Shown here: positions 1 through 8,585 of the stretch, in pieces
Numbering within the stretch: position 1 is the stretch's first letter
Layout: each line of letters starts with the position of its first letter
Source of the DNA: a virus
Reading direction: 5' to 3' (one strand)
Length of the DNA: 64,000 bases
IMG/VR virus record: IMGVR_UViG_3300003322_000128
Span: 34,784 to 98,783 of that record
Program-made: the position numbers and the translations under genes
Notes under the pieces: generated by a model
What the model was told of the DNA's origin: nothing
The model's database searches: none
Seen by the model: the letters and a program-made list of their open reading frames with translations, nothing else

Positions 1-38
1 GCAACACCAAAATAAATAATAAACCGTTAGGAATAAAA

Positions 39-413
39 ATGAACCGTCGTATTACGGCTGCTGTTGTCTCTGCTGTTGCTGTCTCTGTGGTGGCTACGGG
101 TTGTTCTGCCTCTGCTGGTCACTCTGTCAGCCGCGCGGGAATTGTGGTGGACCGCGATATTGAAGGGCATGGCTATGAACTGGAGACTAAGAACAGTTCT
201 GGCAAGCACGAGTTTAGTGTGAGCGCCAAGGTTTATCACGATTGTCAGAAGCGCGAGTACTACCCCTCTTGCATTAAGAGCAGCAAGAAGGACAGCGATA
301 ACCGCAAGAGCTACAAGAAGTCCAAGAAGAAGCGCTCTTGGTCTTGGACTAAGAAGAACAAGTCTAAGAAGTCTTCTAAGGGATTTAGCTTTAAGCGGAG
401 TAAGAGGCGCTAA
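39..413 (+). CDS. Predicted lipoprotein with Lys/Ser-rich basic C-terminal tail
   Basis: Signal peptide MNRRITAAVVSAVAVSVVATG-C with lipobox; AGGA upstream; very basic tail. Confidence 0.75.
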   Translation: MNRRITAAVVSAVAVSVVATGCSASAGHSVSRAGIVVDRDIEGHGYELETKNSSGKHEFSVSAKVYHDCQKREYYPSCIKSSKKDSDNRKSYKKSKKKRSWSWTKKNKSKKSSKGFSFKRSKRR

Positions 414-744
414 GTAAAACCCGGGCGAAAGAAATTTCGCCCAAGCTTGCAATTTTGCCAAAAATTATGACCATCGTAACAGCAAATTCTGTGGCAGTTT
501 TTTGGACCATCGTAAAGGGGTTCCCGGCGAGTCGGGAATGTCGGACATGCCCCGCTTCGCGGGGCTTAGCCCGTGTTTGTACCAATTTGATAGTGTTTGT
601 ACAAATATGTACCAGAATGTCCGATTTGCCCAAGGCTAGTCGGCAAGGTGGGAAACTTTACCAAACCGTGACCAAAAAACCTTCCGTGACGTGCTATCGC
701 GCGATAGGATGGCGCTACGCGCCACCCAAACAGGAGGTACCAAA

Positions 745-999
745 ATGGCCAGGATTACGAACAACAAGCACGTTATGCACTGGAGCGGCGAGACTGTCAC
801 CATTACCCGTCGGTTTCTCAAGTCGGGCGCCGTGCGCGTTCGTGTTGTTGTGGCTGAATCATTCAATGGTACGGAGCGTTTGAACGAATACCGCGATTAC
901 GTTGACATGCACAAGGGTGATGCTGTATATGCTCGACACATCAAAAAGTTTGAGCGTGCAATTGAGTCAGCCGCTCGCGAAGCTTGGAACGCTCGTTAG
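745..999 (+). CDS. Hypothetical early protein
   Basis: CAGGAGG SD before ATG 745 within ORF 691..999; followed by terminator. Confidence 0.75.
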   Translation: MARITNNKHVMHWSGETVTITRRFLKSGAVRVRVVVAESFNGTERLNEYRDYVDMHKGDAVYARHIKKFERAIESAAREAWNAR

Positions 1000-1011
1000 G
1001 CATACCTAACC

Positions 1012-1040
1012 AGGGAGCCGGACAACCGGCTCCCTTTTCT
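1012..1040 (+). terminator. Intrinsic terminator
   Basis: AGGGAGCCGG-acaa-CCGGCTCCCT followed by T run. Confidence 0.85.
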
Positions 1041-1066
1041 ATGCCTGCTAAAAGGTTGAATTCTGT

Positions 1067-1098
1067 ACATCCACAGCTGTGGATAAACCTGTGGATAA
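1067..1098. promoter_or_regulatory. DnaA-box cluster
   Basis: TGTGGATAA (reverse complement of TTATCCACA) at 1078-1086 and 1090-1098; opposed 7/9 box ACATCCACA at 1067-1075; another perfect box at 1343-1351. Confidence 0.75.
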
Positions 1099-1564
1099 CT
1101 TCGCTACTCTCTGCAATGTTACTTTACAGTATGTGAGAAAAGCTCTGTACGCCCTTCTAAGAGCCTCCCAGGGATGCCAATAGGCGACCACCCCAGGACA
1201 CCCGCGAAAGGCCGTTAGACGCGATTTTCACGTTGTGTAGTATCTGATGGAGTGTCAGAGAACCAACGAAAGCGCAGGTCAGACACTGTTTTTCAATCTG
1301 ACAGCGTGTCAGGTTACCGGCCAGTGGTCACAGACTGCTGACTGTGGATAACTTTCTTTACCTAAACGTTACGAAGACACGCCGACATAGGGGTTGACAA
1401 TCTTTAAAAAATTTGCATAGGGGGAAAAGCCGGCCACTTAGGTAAAATTTTGGTAAAGAAAATCAGAAATGGTTGACACAGACTGAGAGTGCCTGTATTT
1501 CGCGCACACTCACACACTCGCCGCATGTTGGGAGCGGCTAGGTTACTCGCGAGTTAACTAACGA

Positions 1565-1580
1565 TGTGACGCACGTCACA
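1565..1580. promoter_or_regulatory. CRP-family binding site
   Basis: Perfect TGTGA-N6-TCACA (TGTGA CGCACG TCACA). Confidence 0.65.
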
Positions 1581-1618
1581 CAAATAGCATGGGAAAGGTT
1601 AGGCATGCTAAACATGGC

Positions 1619-1669
1619 CTCTGACCTGCGAAAACTCACAAAACCGCAGGTCAGAGCATAGGCTAGTGT
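1619..1669 (+). promoter_or_regulatory. Probable early promoter within a 12-bp inverted repeat
   Basis: CTCTGACCTGCG (1619-1630)/CGCAGGTCAGAG (1645-1656); CTCACA-N18-TAGGCT, or alternative -10 TAGTGT. Confidence 0.5.
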
Positions 1670-1686
1670 TTACCTCAGAACGAACG

Positions 1687-1753
1687 GCCCGGAGGAAAGC
1701 CCCGCAAGGGGCGAGTACAAAGGAAGTCGCGGTTACTTGAGAACTAAATAGCG
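1687..1753 (+). promoter_or_regulatory. rRNA-operon-leader-like antitermination element (boxB hairpin + boxA)
   Basis: GCCCGGAGGAAAGCCCCGCAAGGGGCGAGTACAAAGGAAGTCGCGGTTACTTGAGAACTAAATAGCG closely resembles the Streptomyces rrn leader as I recall it; GNRA hairpin 1699-1712, boxA-like 1731-1744. Confidence 0.75.
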
Positions 1754-2122
1754 GGATTCAGAAACACATTACGCACAAGGAAACTCGCGGGTCACTGCCT
1801 AGAGGTCTAGCTAGGAAATCACCCCTTACATTCTGCGAGTTGAATTGACATTCTCGGCACTTTGCCAGGATTAGCGAACGGGCGGTTCTTCCCTTTCCGA
1901 TATGCCAGGAAATATCGACCGTCGAATATAGTGCGATTCCTTTTGGGATAGCGGTAGATATCCAATGCCACTAAAGGGATTCAAGTAGCGAAATCCAGCG
2001 GGTGTTTTGTTTGTCAGTCGAAAGTGCGCCGTGTCCCGATTATCTAGGGACTGTGGCTTTAGACGCTTACCCTTTCGAGCGTCTAGTGTCCACAAAGGAA
2101 TTAGGGAAGAAAGTGAGTCATC

Positions 2123-2452
2123 ATGACGACTGCCGCTCCTGCCAAGAAGACTGCCGCCCCGCGCAAGCGGGCGACTAAGAAGGCTGTCAGCACTCCTCAG
2201 ACGGCCGAACAGACGACGACTGTGTCTGTTGTTGACCCGGACGTCTACGTGCCCCCTACGGGGCTTGCAGAGGGTTTCCAGAGTGATGGGTCCGGCCCGC
2301 TGTTGGATGACCGTCTGACTCCGCGTGCGCTGGAGAACCTGACAGAGCTTGCCACGGACGGAAACACGAACACGGCCCGAAAGTACTGGATTGCCGTGCT
2401 GGCAAAGTACGGCGTCACGGTTCCTTTTGTGCCGGTTGACGAAAGCGAGTAA
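2123..2452 (+). CDS. Hypothetical early protein with histone-like PAKK/KRATKK N-terminus
   Basis: ORF; basic Ala/Lys/Pro-rich N-terminus. Confidence 0.75.
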   Translation: MTTAAPAKKTAAPRKRATKKAVSTPQTAEQTTTVSVVDPDVYVPPTGLAEGFQSDGSGPLLDDRLTPRALENLTELATDGNTNTARKYWIAVLAKYGVTVPFVPVDESE

Positions 2453-2539
2453 AACCGCCGCGCAAAACAACTGAATAGCAATTCCCAAACAAACAACCCC
2501 CTAATTCCTCTGCGGACACTAGAAACCGGAGGAAAAGTA

Positions 2540-2941
2540 ATGGACGCAATGACCGCAAAGGTTGCTCTCCGCATTCTCAAGAAATTGAAGCAGCGTGAGG
2601 CGGAATACTGGGAGGCTCGCCGCTATTGGTATGAAAGCGGTGATGGACGTCCGTCCGATTGGCGAGTTGACCCGGAAACGGGTCGGCACTGGAATGCAGG
2701 CGGTAAGGGTTGGACCTATCCGGAATGCATTCATGGCACTTCCCGTTGGACGGATTATGACAACATTTGTGGCGGGTGTGAGGATGGATATTCCATCTAT
2801 CAACTCGCCATTTGGGAGGCCCAAGAAAAGGTCGCTCAATTCAAGGAACGTGCCGAATGGGTTGGGGCAATGCCTAGTTCCTTTAGGCACACGGAAATGT
2901 ATCATGACGTGCTCGATTGGGTTTTCGAGACCGTCCGGTAA
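2540..2941 (+). CDS. Hypothetical early protein
   Basis: GGAGG SD; CxH...CxxC motif. Confidence 0.8.
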   Translation: MDAMTAKVALRILKKLKQREAEYWEARRYWYESGDGRPSDWRVDPETGRHWNAGGKGWTYPECIHGTSRWTDYDNICGGCEDGYSIYQLAIWEAQEKVAQFKERAEWVGAMPSSFRHTEMYHDVLDWVFETVR

Positions 2942-3015
2942 TTCCAAGCTGTAGGGATTTGGGGGCGTTATCCGAAAGGATGACGTTCCCCATGTCCACA
3001 CAGAGGGGAAACGCA

Positions 3016-3489
3016 ATGCAGCACTACAACCCGACCAAACCGCTTACGTTGGACAACTATGCTATTCAGGTTGACTATTACCTGAATGGTGAAAGCGGCG
3101 AAAAGTGCGCGCGGTTCGGTTCGGCAAAGGAATTTGCCGAATGGATGGACTCATTCGACTACAGTTCGGGTGACATTACTGGCTGGACTGGCGACAGTGC
3201 GACCATGCAGGCGGTAAACAGTTACCGCAATGACAGGCCATACCGCGCAATTCCGGAGTTCATCACGGAATTCAACACGAACGATGGTAGTTCGGAAATC
3301 GTTGGGGCAGACCAATTCCACAATTTGCGTCGCATGTTTACCCGCGACCGCGATAACTACCGCGTTTACCGGCATTACGCCGATGACGCAAAGGTCTACT
3401 CGGTAATGTACGTCGGAAAGGGGGATGCCCGACTTTCTTCCTACGTCTGGCATGTTCCTTTTGGAGCGGATGAAATTCCGATTTCCTGA
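3016..3489 (+). CDS. Hypothetical early protein
   Basis: GAGGGG SD before ATG 3016 within ORF 2917..3489. Confidence 0.75.
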   Translation: MQHYNPTKPLTLDNYAIQVDYYLNGESGEKCARFGSAKEFAEWMDSFDYSSGDITGWTGDSATMQAVNSYRNDRPYRAIPEFITEFNTNDGSSEIVGADQFHNLRRMFTRDRDNYRVYRHYADDAKVYSVMYVGKGDARLSSYVWHVPFGADEIPIS

Positions 3490-3613
3490 AAAGGAACGTG
3501 CGAGAATGAAAGGGGGTGGTTTCCTTGCGACGTAGGCGCAAGCGCAAATTACCCGGGTAAAAACCCAAGCTAATTGATTTGGCCCCGGGCATTCTTCGGA
3601 ATGTTCGGGGAGC

Positions 3614-4051
3614 ATGTCCATTAGAAGGGTGAAGCAAATGGTGGATGAGTGGCATTACTATTCTGACCAATTCGATGCCCGCGAGACTGGGGAGCATGGT
3701 TGGCGGAAATCAAATGTGAAGCCACGGGAAAGCATCCTGCGTAGGGATTCAACACACCGCGCGGGAAGTCGTTGCGGAAAGCTGTGCGTTGACGGGCTGT
3801 GGCCTATTCCTAGGGAATTGACGAGTGTCAAGCCTCCCCAGGGTCCGGGCCCATTCGGATTCACTTCCAATGAATTCGCGTGTGCTTGGTATGTGACGCA
3901 AAACGGCCGGATTTTCAAGCTCATTCGCCACCACGGGAACAATCACAATCTCGTGGTGGAAATTGCTTGGCAGATTCATCAGCCGTATTCATGGATTCCG
4001 AATTACCCCCGGACGCAAGTTTGGGATTGGGTCGGAGTTCAGAGCATCTAG
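3614..4051 (+). CDS. Hypothetical early protein (Trp-rich)
   Basis: ORF with GGGGAG upstream. Confidence 0.65.
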   Translation: MSIRRVKQMVDEWHYYSDQFDARETGEHGWRKSNVKPRESILRRDSTHRAGSRCGKLCVDGLWPIPRELTSVKPPQGPGPFGFTSNEFACAWYVTQNGRIFKLIRHHGNNHNLVVEIAWQIHQPYSWIPNYPRTQVWDWVGVQSI

Positions 4052-4139
4052 TGACATTTAGTGTGTCAGGGGACGCACAAGCCTTTCCGGTTGTGCTTTC
4101 CCCTAATGCATTGAAAGTCAATGCATGAAAGGGGTCAAA

Positions 4140-4319
4140 ATGCGTACCTGCACCGTGAACGGCCGGACGGGCATCATCACTGCACAGAACGGTAAGAGTG
4201 GCGTTCCCGCCACTCAGGTTTTCGTTCTGTTCGATGACAACCGTCCGACCGAATCGGATGCTGCATGGTTCGACGTGTCCGCCGTTCTGCCCACGGGCAT
4301 GGTGACTGTCACGTTCTGA
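4140..4319 (+). CDS. Hypothetical small early protein
   Basis: AAAGGGG SD before ATG 4140. Confidence 0.7.
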   Translation: MRTCTVNGRTGIITAQNGKSGVPATQVFVLFDDNRPTESDAAWFDVSAVLPTGMVTVTF

Positions 4320-4422
4320 GTGTCTGGGGACCGTTCTAAGCGACTCGGAACGGTCCCCCGGCCCGGTTGTCCAACCAAGCCACGAACGGCCGTTAGAACG
4401 GCACAGAGAGGTTTTTTGTACC

Positions 4423-4647
4423 ATGGCACGTACCAAGTGGGAAATCCTGACTGCCCGACTCGAAAAGGCACGGCAGGAAGTTGCCGAACTGGAAAGCATT
4501 ATGCGGGGGATGGAAAACACCCCGGATAACGTTGCATGCTCCGGTTGCGGTGAACAGTTCCGAGTGAATGCCGATTTCGCGCGGCATTTCAAGATTCCGA
4601 ATGAGCAATTGCTCAACACGGGATATTGCCCCAACAATCCGCGATAG
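4423..4647 (+). CDS. Small coiled-coil + zinc-finger-like protein
   Basis: CSGC...H...C motif; GAGAGG SD. Confidence 0.7.
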   Translation: MARTKWEILTARLEKARQEVAELESIMRGMENTPDNVACSGCGEQFRVNADFARHFKIPNEQLLNTGYCPNNPR

Positions 4648-4656
4648 GGGCGAGAA

Positions 4657-4902
4657 ATGGAAAACGCGGAAAACTGCAAGGATTGTCGGACTCCTATCAC
4701 CTTTGCTTATCGCGAATGGTGGGATGAGAACGACGACAATACATGTCCCAAGGGTGGAACGCATTTCCCGTATTTCAAGACGGAACTTGCGCCTACTCCG
4801 GTTTTTTCGACTTCCGGGCCGATAGCGAAGAATCGCGAAAAGCGTTTCGTTCCGCTCCGGGCCCAAAGGGCACAAAGAAGGGGTTTGGTTACTGACGCTT
4901 AG
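4657..4902 (+). CDS. Hypothetical Cys-containing protein
   Basis: CKDC...CP...H motif; packed after previous gene. Confidence 0.65.
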   Translation: MENAENCKDCRTPITFAYREWWDENDDNTCPKGGTHFPYFKTELAPTPVFSTSGPIAKNREKRFVPLRAQRAQRRGLVTDA

Positions 4903-4978
4903 TTGTCTTGGGATTGCCATTCTTTCGGGAATGGCATTGCCCAAAATGTCTAAGGGTTAGGCATTAGAAGGGGCTGCA

Positions 4979-5311
4979 ATGCTTATTCAGATTCTCGACA
5001 TTCTCTCTCGCCAGATGCGGGGTCAGTCACTTACGACTGGTCTTGAAACGGCGCGAGAAATTGAGGCCCTGGTTAGGGAGACTTCCCCTAAGTCTCCCGT
5101 TCGTTCGAATCACTCGGACGAGATTCCGCTTTCGGTCGATATGATTCGCGCGACTGCATGGGCCGAGCGGGCTTTCAATTCCGATGATTTGACGAATTAC
5201 AAGATTCGTGCAATCAAGGAAATCCGCACGAATTGGAATTTGGGCCTTAAGCAGGCTAAGGACATTGCCGATAACGTTTACGGTTCGGCGCCTAAGTCCT
5301 ATTGGGACTAG
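4979..5311 (+). CDS. Protein with ribosomal bL12 (L7/L12) C-terminal-domain-like region
   Basis: KIRAIKEIRTNWNLGLKQAKDIAD matches the L12 CTD signature KIxVIKxVRxxTGLGLKEAKDLVE. Confidence 0.75.
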   Translation: MLIQILDILSRQMRGQSLTTGLETAREIEALVRETSPKSPVRSNHSDEIPLSVDMIRATAWAERAFNSDDLTNYKIRAIKEIRTNWNLGLKQAKDIADNVYGSAPKSYWD

Positions 5312-5403
5312 CTCTCTGCGCTTTATGGTGGTGGCCATTTCGGGCGGGTTTTGAAATGGCCATTCGCCAAATGCGTTAAGGGTTAACGCAGGAAAGGGAA
5401 TCA

Positions 5404-5766
5404 ATGCGTACGGAAATGGTTCACCTCACCAATGCGTTTGTCCGTTACTGCGCTTCCGCTCGGAAGCTTGGTTACGACACTACGGGTTGGGGGCTTACGG
5501 TCGGTTCTAAGACCCAAGGGAACCCCTACAAGGTTGGGGTGAAGGGTGAATGCGGTAAGAGTCTTCCTGGCATGGGAGATGGAGATATCGGCCGGACCCG
5601 TGGCGAGGCTTACGACAGGTTGGTTACCGCCGCGAACGTGCTTGACGACGTGTGCAAGCATCTTTACGGATGTTCCGGAGACGGCTATGCGAGTGAAATG
5701 CCGCATGACACTTTCGTTCGGGAATCTCTGCACGTTTCCGGATTTCATCAGTACTGCAATAACTGA
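5404..5766 (+). CDS. Hypothetical early protein
   Basis: GAAAGGGA SD; ORF. Confidence 0.75.
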   Translation: MRTEMVHLTNAFVRYCASARKLGYDTTGWGLTVGSKTQGNPYKVGVKGECGKSLPGMGDGDIGRTRGEAYDRLVTAANVLDDVCKHLYGCSGDGYASEMPHDTFVRESLHVSGFHQYCNN

Positions 5767-5785
5767 ATAGAAAGGAAAAGACATC

Positions 5786-5977
5786 ATGCGAATTCAGCCG
5801 CGCCAAAGTGTTCAGACTACTTGGAATCGAGCTATCAACGATTCGTTTTTCCGGTTTGAGCATTACGTTATTCCGGGCAAGGAATCCGCCACTTACGTTT
5901 ATCGGCGGGTTTTCGATTCGTGGACTCCCGATGGACGTTGGGAGCTGGAAAAGCTCATTCGGCTCTATGCTGAATAG
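5786..5977 (+). CDS. Hypothetical small protein
   Basis: GAAAGGA SD; ORF. Confidence 0.7.
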   Translation: MRIQPRQSVQTTWNRAINDSFFRFEHYVIPGKESATYVYRRVFDSWTPDGRWELEKLIRLYAE

Positions 5978-6046
5978 CTGAATGTCCGGGGCACAATGTG
6001 TCCCGTGGCATTGTCTATTCAGAGTGAGTAGGCAGGAAAGGGCATC

Positions 6047-7666: not shown

Positions 7667-7793
7667 GAACTACCCACTATCTTTTGGAAAGCACTAACTA
7701 AAAGTTAGTGTAAATGTAGGGTATTTGTGCGGCTATCTAGGCGCAATTAAGCCGCATTTCTGCCTGAATTCGGGCAAAAACAAGGGAAAAAGC

Positions 7794-7880
7794 ATGTATT
7801 CGCTTGCATTTCTTGCAATTACGGCCCTTTTCCTGATTGCCGCCTACTTTGCCGGGGTATTGCCGGGCGGTATTCAGTAG
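7794..7880 (+). CDS. 28-aa single-TM microprotein MYSLAFLAITALFLIAAYFAGVLPGGIQ
   Basis: Read manually; AAGGGA SD. Confidence 0.6.
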   Translation: MYSLAFLAITALFLIAAYFAGVLPGGIQ

Positions 7881-7900
7881 ATACAGAAAGGTAAATACAC

Positions 7901-8188
7901 ATGCCTATTGCTATTCAGTATATGGATAGGCCCAATTCTCCTAATGGTGCATACTATGGGGGGTATTGTGTGAATGATGGTAGCAATACCGTATTCATAG
8001 AAACCCGGGCTGCAAATAATCTCTTGCCTGTATATGCATGGCTAGGTAATGGAGATAGGGCTATTGGCAGGGAGGTCTATAAGACAGCTCTAGTTATGCC
8101 TAGCGTTACTCTCAATGCCAAGCAGTACAATACCTTGGTATGTTCTATTCCTACTCATGAGCAGAGGGCATATAGCAAAGGAGATTGA
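7901..8188 (+). CDS. Hypothetical protein
   Basis: GAAAGG SD; ORF. Confidence 0.7.
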   Translation: MPIAIQYMDRPNSPNGAYYGGYCVNDGSNTVFIETRAANNLLPVYAWLGNGDRAIGREVYKTALVMPSVTLNAKQYNTLVCSIPTHEQRAYSKGD

Positions 8189-8366
8189 GACAGAAATTCC
8201 CCCGAATTCTCCTGAAATCAATAGGGGAAAGGCAATTGCAGCTAGTTCTATAACTGTAGTTGTGGGAAGTGGCTTTTCTGCCTTGGTCATCATTGCAGTC
8301 TCGTTTATCCTGGTCACAATTCTTTGTGTCCTATGGGGCGTAGGGATTGCTATTTCGGCAGTATAG
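8157..8366 (+). CDS. Small membrane protein (start uncertain)
   Basis: Long hydrophobic C-terminal half in ORF 8115..8366. Confidence 0.5.
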   Translation: MSRGHIAKEIETEIPPNSPEINRGKAIAASSITVVVGSGFSALVIIAVSFILVTILCVLWGVGIAISAV

Positions 8367-8585
8367 GAATTCTTTAGTGGGACCCCCGAGATAATTTCAA
8401 ATGGGTCCCCCGAATTCTTTTTGAATTCAATATGCATTTGCTTTTATGGGCGCACTAATTGCAAGTGCGAATTCTATTTGCCGGCCTATATCATACATCT
8501 ACAAAATTTTTTAACATTTTGAATCTGGAAATTAGGTTACTTTGAGTTGATTGTAGCTAACTGAGAGTAATGGTCTGTAAACATA

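Follow-up and report, generated by a model that had tools for sequence, protein, structure and literature searches.

The DNA analysed here, which we call the window, is a 64,000-nt stretch of a virus record in IMG/VR (IMGVR_UViG_3300003322_000128), comprising bases 34,784–98,783 of a 98.8-kb contig with a completeness estimate of 77%. Its closest kin in megablast and blastn searches are the ~130-kb lytic Streptomyces siphoviruses of the Stanwilliamsviridae/Loccivirinae (31–43 records matched), among them Faust, Sham, TunaTartare, Annadreamy and Gilson, and the window phage is cluster-BE2-like. Near the start of the window lies a region without annotated genes, positions 995–1660 of which had been described in an initial annotation as an array of host-regulator binding sites. 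This region is flanked upstream by a short open reading frame (ORF) with a terminator, and is followed downstream by a mimic of the host ribosomal RNA (rRNA) leader, a probable non-coding RNA and protein genes.

A conserved non-coding region in front of an rRNA leader mimic

The positions described above make up the upstream half of the longest piece of non-coding DNA in the phage. In Faust, the gap found here is the largest annotated one among the parts of the record examined, and most of the annotated relatives examined have a gene-free gap of 1–1.8 kb at the same place. The description of the region as lacking ORFs holds in practice, since the only ORFs are 31–50 amino acids long and unconserved. 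For footprinting, an alignment of 13 sequences (the window and 12 relatives) was used, and some of the counts given below refer to 19 relatives. In the 13-sequence alignment, conserved blocks with 75–87% identity have sharp edges at 1055 and 1580, versus mostly 66–77% (up to 81% in Kenrey) for downstream stretches, including flanking genes. Positions 1036–1675 encode no protein and, in the leading reading, represent a conserved upstream control region.

The segment that follows the conserved blocks mimics the leader of Streptomyces 16S rRNA, including the boxB/boxA region (1676–1753, plus strand). It is 79–81% identical over 67–78 nt to host loci in which the motif lies 130–205 nt upstream of the 16S 5′ end. 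The motif used to test the leader, TTGAGAACTNAACAG, matches mostly actinobacterial loci, and a 16S 5′ end is located at most 800 nt downstream in 54 of 120 loci (commonly at ~130–205 nt), while 48 more are found at locus ends. Behind the phage copy, no rRNA match is present in positions 1–6000, and the leader mimic is followed by a probable unrelated RNA of ~300 nt and by protein genes. This RNA (1713–2031, plus strand) corresponds to the only part of 400–2600 with near-identical contigs in RNA sequencing data (two runs from one study; 299 nt with 4 differences), and both local and long-range helices are predicted for it by alifold of the aligned relatives, with three left out. It is probably a stable phage RNA of ~300 nt with its end near the T-rich run at 2005–2015, and there is a weak hint that an abundant RNA stands in the place of 16S. 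Literature searches did not bring up any relevant work on rrn/boxA mimicry by Streptomyces phages. Six other IMG/VR contigs (46–92 kb; L300–L305) carry a leader-like CAAAGGAA..TTGAGAACT.AACAG sequence; they lack DnaA boxes, and the 900 nt downstream of the sequence do not contain a 16S start. Actinophages may have adopted such leader copies repeatedly.

Between the conserved blocks and the leader mimic lies a lineage-specific replacement segment (1581–1675, plus strand), with an identity to relatives of 0.32. It contains a perfect 12-bp hairpin (1619–1656) formed by copies of CGCAGGTCAGA, the sequence GTTAGGCAT at 1598 and a −10-like element, TAGGCT/TAGTGT, at 1659–1669. Most relatives have at this position a promoter resembling that of host rrn, CTGATAGAGTCGG, preceded by a GA-rich tract. 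Of the placement of the array upstream of the main early promoter, what stands is that a conserved non-coding element is located upstream of the promoter-like −10 that opens the leader mimic. The leader mimic, the host-type promoter of relatives and the probable RNA at the 16S position together suggest that the region is the upstream control of a pseudo-rrn unit. Judging from sequence, we consider it possible, with a probability of about 0.4, that this is the transcription-control region of such a unit, with an input from host DnaA and perhaps another from Crp.

On the upstream side, an ORF of 84 amino acids with a good ribosome-binding site (745–999) is closed by an intrinsic terminator (1012–1035, plus strand; 10-bp stem with 8 G-C pairs, T run). 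Both are specific to the window phage and have no counterpart in relatives. TunaTartare encodes an endonuclease VII/HNH gene in the slot of this ORF, suggesting that 640–1035 is an insertion hot spot. Another conserved non-coding block, with 72–83% identity, is found at 470–630, where GACCATCGTAA and GTGTTTGTAC are each present twice as direct repeats; in relatives, this block is located ~400 nt upstream of the DnaA boxes.

DnaA boxes, promoter-like sites and other candidate regulator sites

All motifs listed in the initial annotation are present where it had placed them. Compared to 2000 dinucleotide-preserving shuffles, the claimed excess over background is found for DnaA boxes, GACAC cores and GTnAn-N6-GTnAA repeats. 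Because the list of motifs was drawn up after the sequence had been seen, conservation in the 12 relatives was taken as the decisive filter. DnaA boxes, TTGACA hexamers, GTnAn repeats and the Crp-type palindrome are kept, whereas GACAC cores, GTTAGGCAT and the exact TTACTCGCGAGTTAA are not. The DnaA boxes at least, and plausibly the Crp-type palindrome, have the appearance of selected protein-binding sites. The WhiA and DtxR/DmdR sites and the near-palindrome do not find support; by this measure, a number of the sites initially assigned to host regulators are chance matches.

The DnaA-box cluster (1067–1098) consists of a degenerate box, ACATCCACA (1067–1075), facing a tandem pair of TGTGGATAA boxes (1078–1086 and 1090–1098). 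The 3-bp spacing of the pair, TGTGGATAA-ACC-TGTGGATAA, agrees with the tandem-pair criterion for a DnaA origin. A single TGTGGATAA box, the fourth when the degenerate one is counted, is located at 1343–1351 and is kept in 12/12 relatives. Three of the four copies of the TTATCCACA 9-mer in the contig lie in the region (1078, 1090 and 1343), versus 0.04 DnaA boxes expected, and none of the 2000 shuffles reaches three. The boxes are retained in 10–12 of the 12 relatives. In all 19 siphovirus relatives, two or three boxes precede the conserved block B (described below) and one follows it, with a constant distance of 248–256 bp between the tandem pair and the single box. The middle box is flipped yet present in Muntaha, Comrade and Belfort, and the tolerance of such flips argues for a double-stranded protein-binding site rather than an RNA element. 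The boxes match the universal high-affinity box at 9/9 positions and are one position off the Streptomyces optimum, TTGTCCACA (PMC4285127). Tandem consensus boxes 3 bp apart are also found in at least 118 IMG/VR viral contigs, versus ~2 by chance according to our own estimate, suggesting that DnaA-box pairs are a recurrent and little-studied feature of viral contigs. A literature search on DnaA boxes in actinophages yielded nothing relevant.

Two TTGACA hexamers are present in the region, versus 0.29 expected (65 of the 2000 shuffles reach this number). As had been remarked for both, a good −10 is missing: neither the hexamer at 1394 nor that at 1473 has TAnnnT 16–18 nt downstream, and no canonical TTGACA-N16-18-TAnnnT site is found within 995–2122. 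The hexamer at 1394–1399 (plus strand), kept in 11/12 relatives, has TAGGGG at 18 nt, which is not conserved; the sequence 16–18 nt downstream is variable and there is no conserved partner. The second hexamer belongs to a promoter-like site (1473–1510, plus strand; kept in 11/12 relatives) made of TTGACA, 17 nt, TATTTC, which is devoid of the final T of TAnnnT, and a GC-rich discriminator, GCGCACAC. Among the 11 relatives, footprint identities are 1.00 for the −35, 0.48 for the 17-nt spacer and 1.00 for the TATTT of the −10. An AT-rich tract with GTAAA-N6-GTAAA (1438–1472, plus strand; 35 nt, 74% AT), resembling an UP element, abuts the −35. Ranked by duplex stability, it falls within the least stable 0.8% of the contig when segments of 30 nt are compared, versus 5.5% for segments of 60 nt and 8.7% for those of 100 nt. 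The combination of a perfect −35, a weak −10, an UP-like tract and a GC-rich discriminator is the architecture of growth-rate-controlled rRNA promoters, such as E. coli rrnB P1. By analogy, 1473–1510 may be viewed as an rrn-P1-style promoter-like site. To our knowledge, UP-element function has not been established in Streptomyces.

The AT-rich tract is also the right arm of a 20-nt inverted pair, the left arm of which is the direct repeat GTAAC-N6-GTAAA (1353–1372, minus strand). A further direct repeat, GTTAC-N6-GTTAA (1542–1558, plus strand), coincides with the near-palindrome of the initial annotation. Its exact form, TTACTCGCGAGTTAA, is kept in 0/12 relatives; the centre is variable, and the outer half-sites, read as GTTAC-N6-GTYAA, are kept in 9/12. 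Altogether, GTnAn-N6-GTnAA with 11-bp spacing is found at three sites (1353–1372 on the minus strand, 1442–1457 and 1542–1557), versus 0.12 expected and 0/2000 shuffles. Two sites had been proposed as GlnR/MtrA-like boxes. TTTAC-N6-KTTAC is indeed present (at 1357 and, reversed, at 1442) and conserved, with the relaxed TTTAC-N6-KTTAY kept in 12/12 relatives and GTAA-N7-GTAA in 11/12, but the same sequences may alternatively be read as the 11-bp direct repeats. The consensus of boxes bound by OmpR-family regulators of the GlnR/MtrA/AfsQ1 type is GTnAC-n6-GTnAC; the three GTnAn repeats, kept in 9–12 of the 12 relatives, fit this pattern. The box at 1442 can equally be read as the UP-like A/T tract.

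The perfect Crp-type palindrome, TGTGACGCACGTCACA (1565–1580), is unique in the contig and matches perfectly both the core of E. coli sites, TGTGA-N6-TCACA, and GTG-N6-GNCAC, the Crp consensus of S. coelicolor (PMC3520106). The site, reported initially as a perfect one, is unchanged in 9/12 relatives and absent from Annadreamy, Blueeyedbeauty and Muntaha. It is located at about +65 from the 1473 site and at about −85 to −100 from the −10-like element at 1659–1669. If the 1473 site fires, the GTTAC-N6-GTTAA repeat and the palindrome would occupy approximately nucleotides +35 to +75 of the resulting RNA, and might work either as DNA sites or within the leader RNA. The palindrome, ~65 nt from the start of this RNA, might then just as well be a hairpin of the leader.

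The remaining proposals fared less well. GACAC is the WhiA core, but the motif is too frequent for prediction according to the same study (PMC3781837). GACAC/GTGTC cores are found at 1197, 1252, 1282, 1306, 1376 and 1475 (6 versus 1.68 expected; reached in 8/2000 shuffles); they are kept in only 6, 0, 2, 3, 4 and 5 of the 12 relatives, respectively, which speaks against WhiA sites. The DtxR/DmdR-like GTTAGGCAT sequences (995 and 1598) are kept in 0/12 relatives; the former lies on the stop codon of the window-specific ORF and the latter in the lineage-specific segment. Iron boxes were rejected, since the best match in the region to the 19-bp palindrome TTAGGTTAGGCT(A/C)ACCTAA has 6 mismatches (position 991), the best one in the whole contig has 5, and every relative has at least 6. 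The replacement segment of Muntaha (L012, ~2880–2960) contains palindromes of the TTAGC/GCTAA type, e.g., GTTAGGCTAAC, which recall GTTAGGCAT of the window. These are not iron boxes either (6 mismatches), and only Muntaha has such different palindromes of its own.

A cassette shared with Streptomyces tectiviruses

The DnaA boxes bracket a module of ~200 bp (~1105–1300) with three blocks, B, C and D. Block B (1116–1153, plus strand; GTTAC..ACAGT..AAAAGCTCTGTACG) is the most conserved piece, with a mean identity of 0.95 in the 12 relatives and 0.91 in 19, including tectiviruses. Block C (1209–1247, plus strand) is promoter-like and consists of TTAGAC (1215–1220), 17 nt, TAGTAT (1238–1243) and CTGA. 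Footprint identities are 0.94 for the hexamers and 0.67 for the last 6 bases of the spacer, with the caveat that the initial 11 spacer bases (0.96) are as strongly conserved as the hexamers. The TTAGACGC..TAGTnT pattern has just two copies on the plus strand of the contig, one in block C and the other at 2059. The latter is a second promoter-like site, TTAGACGC..TAGTGT (2059–2094, plus strand), which ends 29 nt before the start of the gene at 2123 and overlaps GTGTCCACA (2086–2094), an 8/9 match to the Streptomyces DnaA box. This site includes an internal 8-bp inverted repeat and is nearly invariant in 10 of the 13 phages. Block D, CGCAGGTCAGAC (1273–1284, plus strand), is repeated at 1645–1655 and, inverted, at 1620–1630.

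Forthebois, RickRoss and WheeHeim, three tectiviruses of Streptomyces with genomes of 18 kb, also contain blocks B–D, at ~70% identity (L142:2484–2700, L157:1484–1700 and L158:1484–1700). In these genomes, the cassette is found in the 208 nt that separate the DNA polymerase gene from gene 10; it is oriented opposite to both genes and is not accompanied by DnaA boxes. A tblastn search with seven Forthebois proteins revealed no credible protein common to the tectiviruses and siphoviruses. As for a host source, blastn of 1040–1600 against five Streptomyces genomes gave no match below an E value of 0.18, and the 20-mer of block C, with up to two mismatches, is absent from the 201 Streptomyces genomes searched. 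Additional matches to the block C core in IMG/VR occur without all of the other blocks and were dismissed as chance. The paper on the tectiviruses (PMC6950372) makes no mention of the intergenic cassette.

Interpretation of the region and its closest parallels

The counterpart of the conserved stretch in Faust is located at 123.6–124.1 kb of 130.7 kb. Faust has an exact direct terminal repeat of 772 bp, the counterpart of which falls inside the window at ~7,700–8,500, indicating that the contig, which is metagenomic, is a circularly permuted assembly; at these positions, it reads through the collapsed genome ends. By synteny with Faust, the control region is thus ~6.5–7 kb inward of the right genome end and is no terminus, so that the proposal of a location on the first-injected DNA has to be abandoned. 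The neighbourhood is a long series of small rightward genes. The PHROGs search of the four flanking ORFs returned no family, the Rfam scan of 1–6000 with E values up to 1 returned zero families, and the tRNA scan found nothing nearby, only three distant tRNA-Thr. The annotation of Faust includes a DnaB-like helicase, primase, DnaE, DnaQ, recombinase, and WhiB-like, Lsr2-like and Ro-like proteins; an RNA polymerase, a sigma factor and a replication initiator are all missing from it. Canonical host-type promoters (TTGACA-N16-18-TAnnnT) number 25 on the plus strand of the contig, mostly upstream of the control region. Together with the lack of an annotated polymerase or sigma factor in Faust, these promoters suggest that the host RNA polymerase is used. 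Most of the 25 sites cluster at contig positions 5,800–32,000, upstream of the window. The contig also displays a strand bias, with TTGACA found 78 times on the plus and 32 times on the minus strand, and TTAGAC rarer on the plus strand (5 versus 29).

The motifs with their conservation, the resemblance to the host leader and the sharing of the cassette are direct observations, whereas which proteins bind, where transcription starts and in which direction it is regulated is inferred. In the proposed pseudo-rrn control region, the terminator would shut off the upstream operon. Three DnaA boxes and a fourth 250 bp away would then bracket the cassette, with its own promoter-like site (TTAGAC-17-TAGTAT) and CGCAGGTCAGAC. 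The UP-like tract, perfect −35, weak −10 and GC-rich discriminator would constitute an rrn-P1-style promoter at 1473–1510, the leader of which would hold the repeat and the Crp-consensus palindrome, and the final −10-like element (1659–1669) would open the copied host 16S leader. Transcription would be initiated by the principal-sigma form of the host RNA polymerase; the weak −10 and GC-rich discriminator would tie the output to the growth state of the host, as in rRNA promoters, and the leader mimic would draw in host rRNA antitermination factors. Host DnaA on the four boxes, and possibly Crp on the palindrome, would modulate the firing. The levels of the non-coding RNA and of the small genes in the ~6.5 kb at the right end would in this way follow the physiological state of the hypha. 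A bolder version, which we regard as rather unlikely, is a DnaA-gated pseudo-rRNA operon in which DnaA (perhaps with Crp), rrn-type kinetics and the captured antitermination leader time the structured RNA, the terminal early genes and possibly origin firing, the cassette being an exchanged regulatory or small-RNA module.

Several observations weigh against a pseudo-rrn control region. The modules are mosaic and may not form a single working unit. All boxes are TTATCCACA and none is the Streptomyces optimum TTGTCCACA, so that they could be bound by a protein of the phage instead. Upstream of host rrn operons, DnaA boxes are essentially absent; hence, the boxes are no part of the mimicry and, from the comparison of sequences, are an addition specific to the group of the window phage. 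In the Comrade lineage, the −10 of the cassette and block D are deleted, indicating that this part is dispensable. In contrast to the 25 clear promoters of the phage, both TTGACA hexamers lack a canonical TAnnnT −10. The palindrome is found 3′ of the promoter-like site at 1473, where it may have an RNA role. The contigs of the RNA runs show nothing over 995–1660 but, being contigs, are uninformative on transcription there.

The main rival reading, doubtful but deserving serious weight, is that 1055–1580 is the replication origin of the phage. DnaA would bind the four boxes, and the repeats, AT-rich and GC-rich tracts would play the parts they have in plasmid oriV or P1 oriR. The internal promoters, when transcribed, would help duplex opening for loading of the DnaB-like helicase, and this role would be compatible with a regulatory one. 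The phage has the DnaB-like helicase, primase, DnaE and DnaQ with no annotated initiator, and the region is a highly conserved 525-bp block with sharp borders; the consensus boxes, including the tandem pair 3 bp apart, and the recurrence of such pairs in at least 118 viral contigs (versus ~2 by our own chance estimate) point in the same direction. The order of DnaA boxes, short (inverted 11-bp) repeats, AT-rich tract and GC-rich tract resembles RK2 oriV and P1 oriR; unlike in these, there is no Rep gene, the repeats come only in pairs, and neither an outstanding unwinding element nor DnaA-trios are found. In the basal unwinding system, tandem DnaA boxes at most 3 bp apart are accompanied by at least three DnaA-trios (middle A, 3′-GAT-5′) within ~13–16 bp (PMC8287927), whereas no run of DnaA-trios was seen by eye beside the tandem pair or the single box, on both strands and both sides. 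The AT-rich tract (1438–1472) is short, with distances of 90 nt to the single box and 340 nt to the tandem boxes, and its stability at 60 and 100 nt (5.5% and 8.7%) is unremarkable; the least stable DNA of the contig is elsewhere, e.g., at ~13,512 of the window, which by Faust synteny is near the junction of leftward and rightward gene blocks. Furthermore, the site is ~60 kb or more from the replication genes, the GC skew is unchanged here and the central cassette is common to protein-primed tectiviruses without boxes.

The possibility that the conserved sites are operators for phage proteins, with coincidental or convergent likeness to the DnaA, Crp and OmpR-family consensus sequences, appears unlikely. 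In its favour, the boxes are always TTATCCACA inside the extended CTGTGGATAAC and not the host optimum, CGCAGGTCAGA and TTAGACGC are repeated and have no known host binder, and the function of most phage genes is unknown. However, three boxes match the universal DnaA box at 9/9 positions and the tandem 3-bp spacing is typical of DnaA sites, whereas the occurrence of the cassette in tectiviruses without a detected shared protein points to a host factor. Quite improbable is a small-RNA gene in the cassette (1105–1300), starting from TTAGAC-17-TAGTAT and ending in a terminator-like hairpin, the loop of which, CGCAGGUCAGAC, would pair with the complementary TCTGACCTGCG of the leader further downstream. 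In this case, the DnaA boxes would be no more than neighbours of the gene; this reading can coexist with the others. The promoter-like footprint of block C is consistent with this proposal, as are the complementary copies of the loop at 1620–1630 and, in some relatives, in the variable segment. In the tectiviruses, block D is enclosed as a loop by a 12-bp stem, after which TTTTCC follows, and the isolates differ from each other in a compensatory manner (Forthebois versus RickRoss/WheeHeim). G-U pairs are allowed on the plus strand only. However, a conserved hairpin around CGCAGGTCAGAC was rejected as a general feature, because it holds for the tectiviruses only and is weak or absent in many siphoviruses, including DekoNeimoidia, Ankus and Byblos. 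RNAalifold of 20 copies of the cassette (1100–1340) found zero covariation, single-sequence folds of both strands are not better than those of shuffles (z-scores of the minimum free energy, −0.96 and −1.42), and there is no Rfam match. Finally, we consider it very improbable that the region is a decoy, which would titrate host DnaA and other regulators on replicating phage DNA, in a datA-like manner, and halt host replication or development. The phage is lytic and multicopy, and each genome copy carries four or five boxes of the high-affinity type, but sites of each kind are too few, the WhiA- and DtxR-like ones are not conserved, the region is away from the genome ends, and the fixed positions of boxes around promoter-like elements suggest local action. 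Nothing was found in support of the decoy or ratchet suggested in the initial annotation.

Returning to the pseudo-rrn reading, its closest parallels are the E. coli rrnB P1 and Streptomyces rrn promoters. As in these, an AT-rich tract abuts a consensus −35, the −10 is sub-optimal, the discriminator is GC-rich, several promoter-like sites are arranged in tandem and the downstream leader is ~80% identical to the host 16S leader. Unlike host rrn, the phage region has no rRNA gene behind it, 1055–1580 has no sequence similarity to host rrn upstream DNA, and DnaA boxes are present in the phage region and absent upstream of host rrn. In lambda pR/ori-lambda and in DnaA-regulated promoters of Bacillus subtilis, consensus boxes beside promoters couple transcription, and possibly origin activation, to DnaA. 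The phage region is analogous in having consensus boxes near promoter-like sites. It differs in the actinomycete host, with TTGTCCACA as the optimal box, in that the boxes bracket a 200-bp cassette, and in having neither an adjacent phage initiator gene nor iterons of a known Rep protein. The regulatory region of phi29 contains sites for a host global regulator, Spo0A. Tectivirus GIL01 has co-opted the host regulator LexA, as noted in PMC6950372. As in both cases, consensus sites for host global regulators would here allow the host state to be sensed, although the putative regulators are DnaA and Crp, and Streptomyces tectiviruses have the cassette without boxes.

For annotation, it is relevant that the ‘empty’ gap of 1–1.8 kb in ~40 deposited genomes would represent functional DNA, which includes a non-coding cassette apparently exchanged between tailed phages and tectiviruses, a mention of which was not found in the literature searched. 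The region offers short, concrete probes, and is connected with an rRNA leader captured from the host and with an RNA that annotations do not include. For large lytic actinophages, knowledge of how early transcription is timed and how replication starts is scant. If DnaA and Crp of the host really do act in this region, the phage would read both the replication competence of its host, through DnaA, and its cyclic AMP state, through Crp, in a multicellular, differentiating bacterium, and would thereby join the few well-studied phages that are wired into master regulators of the host.

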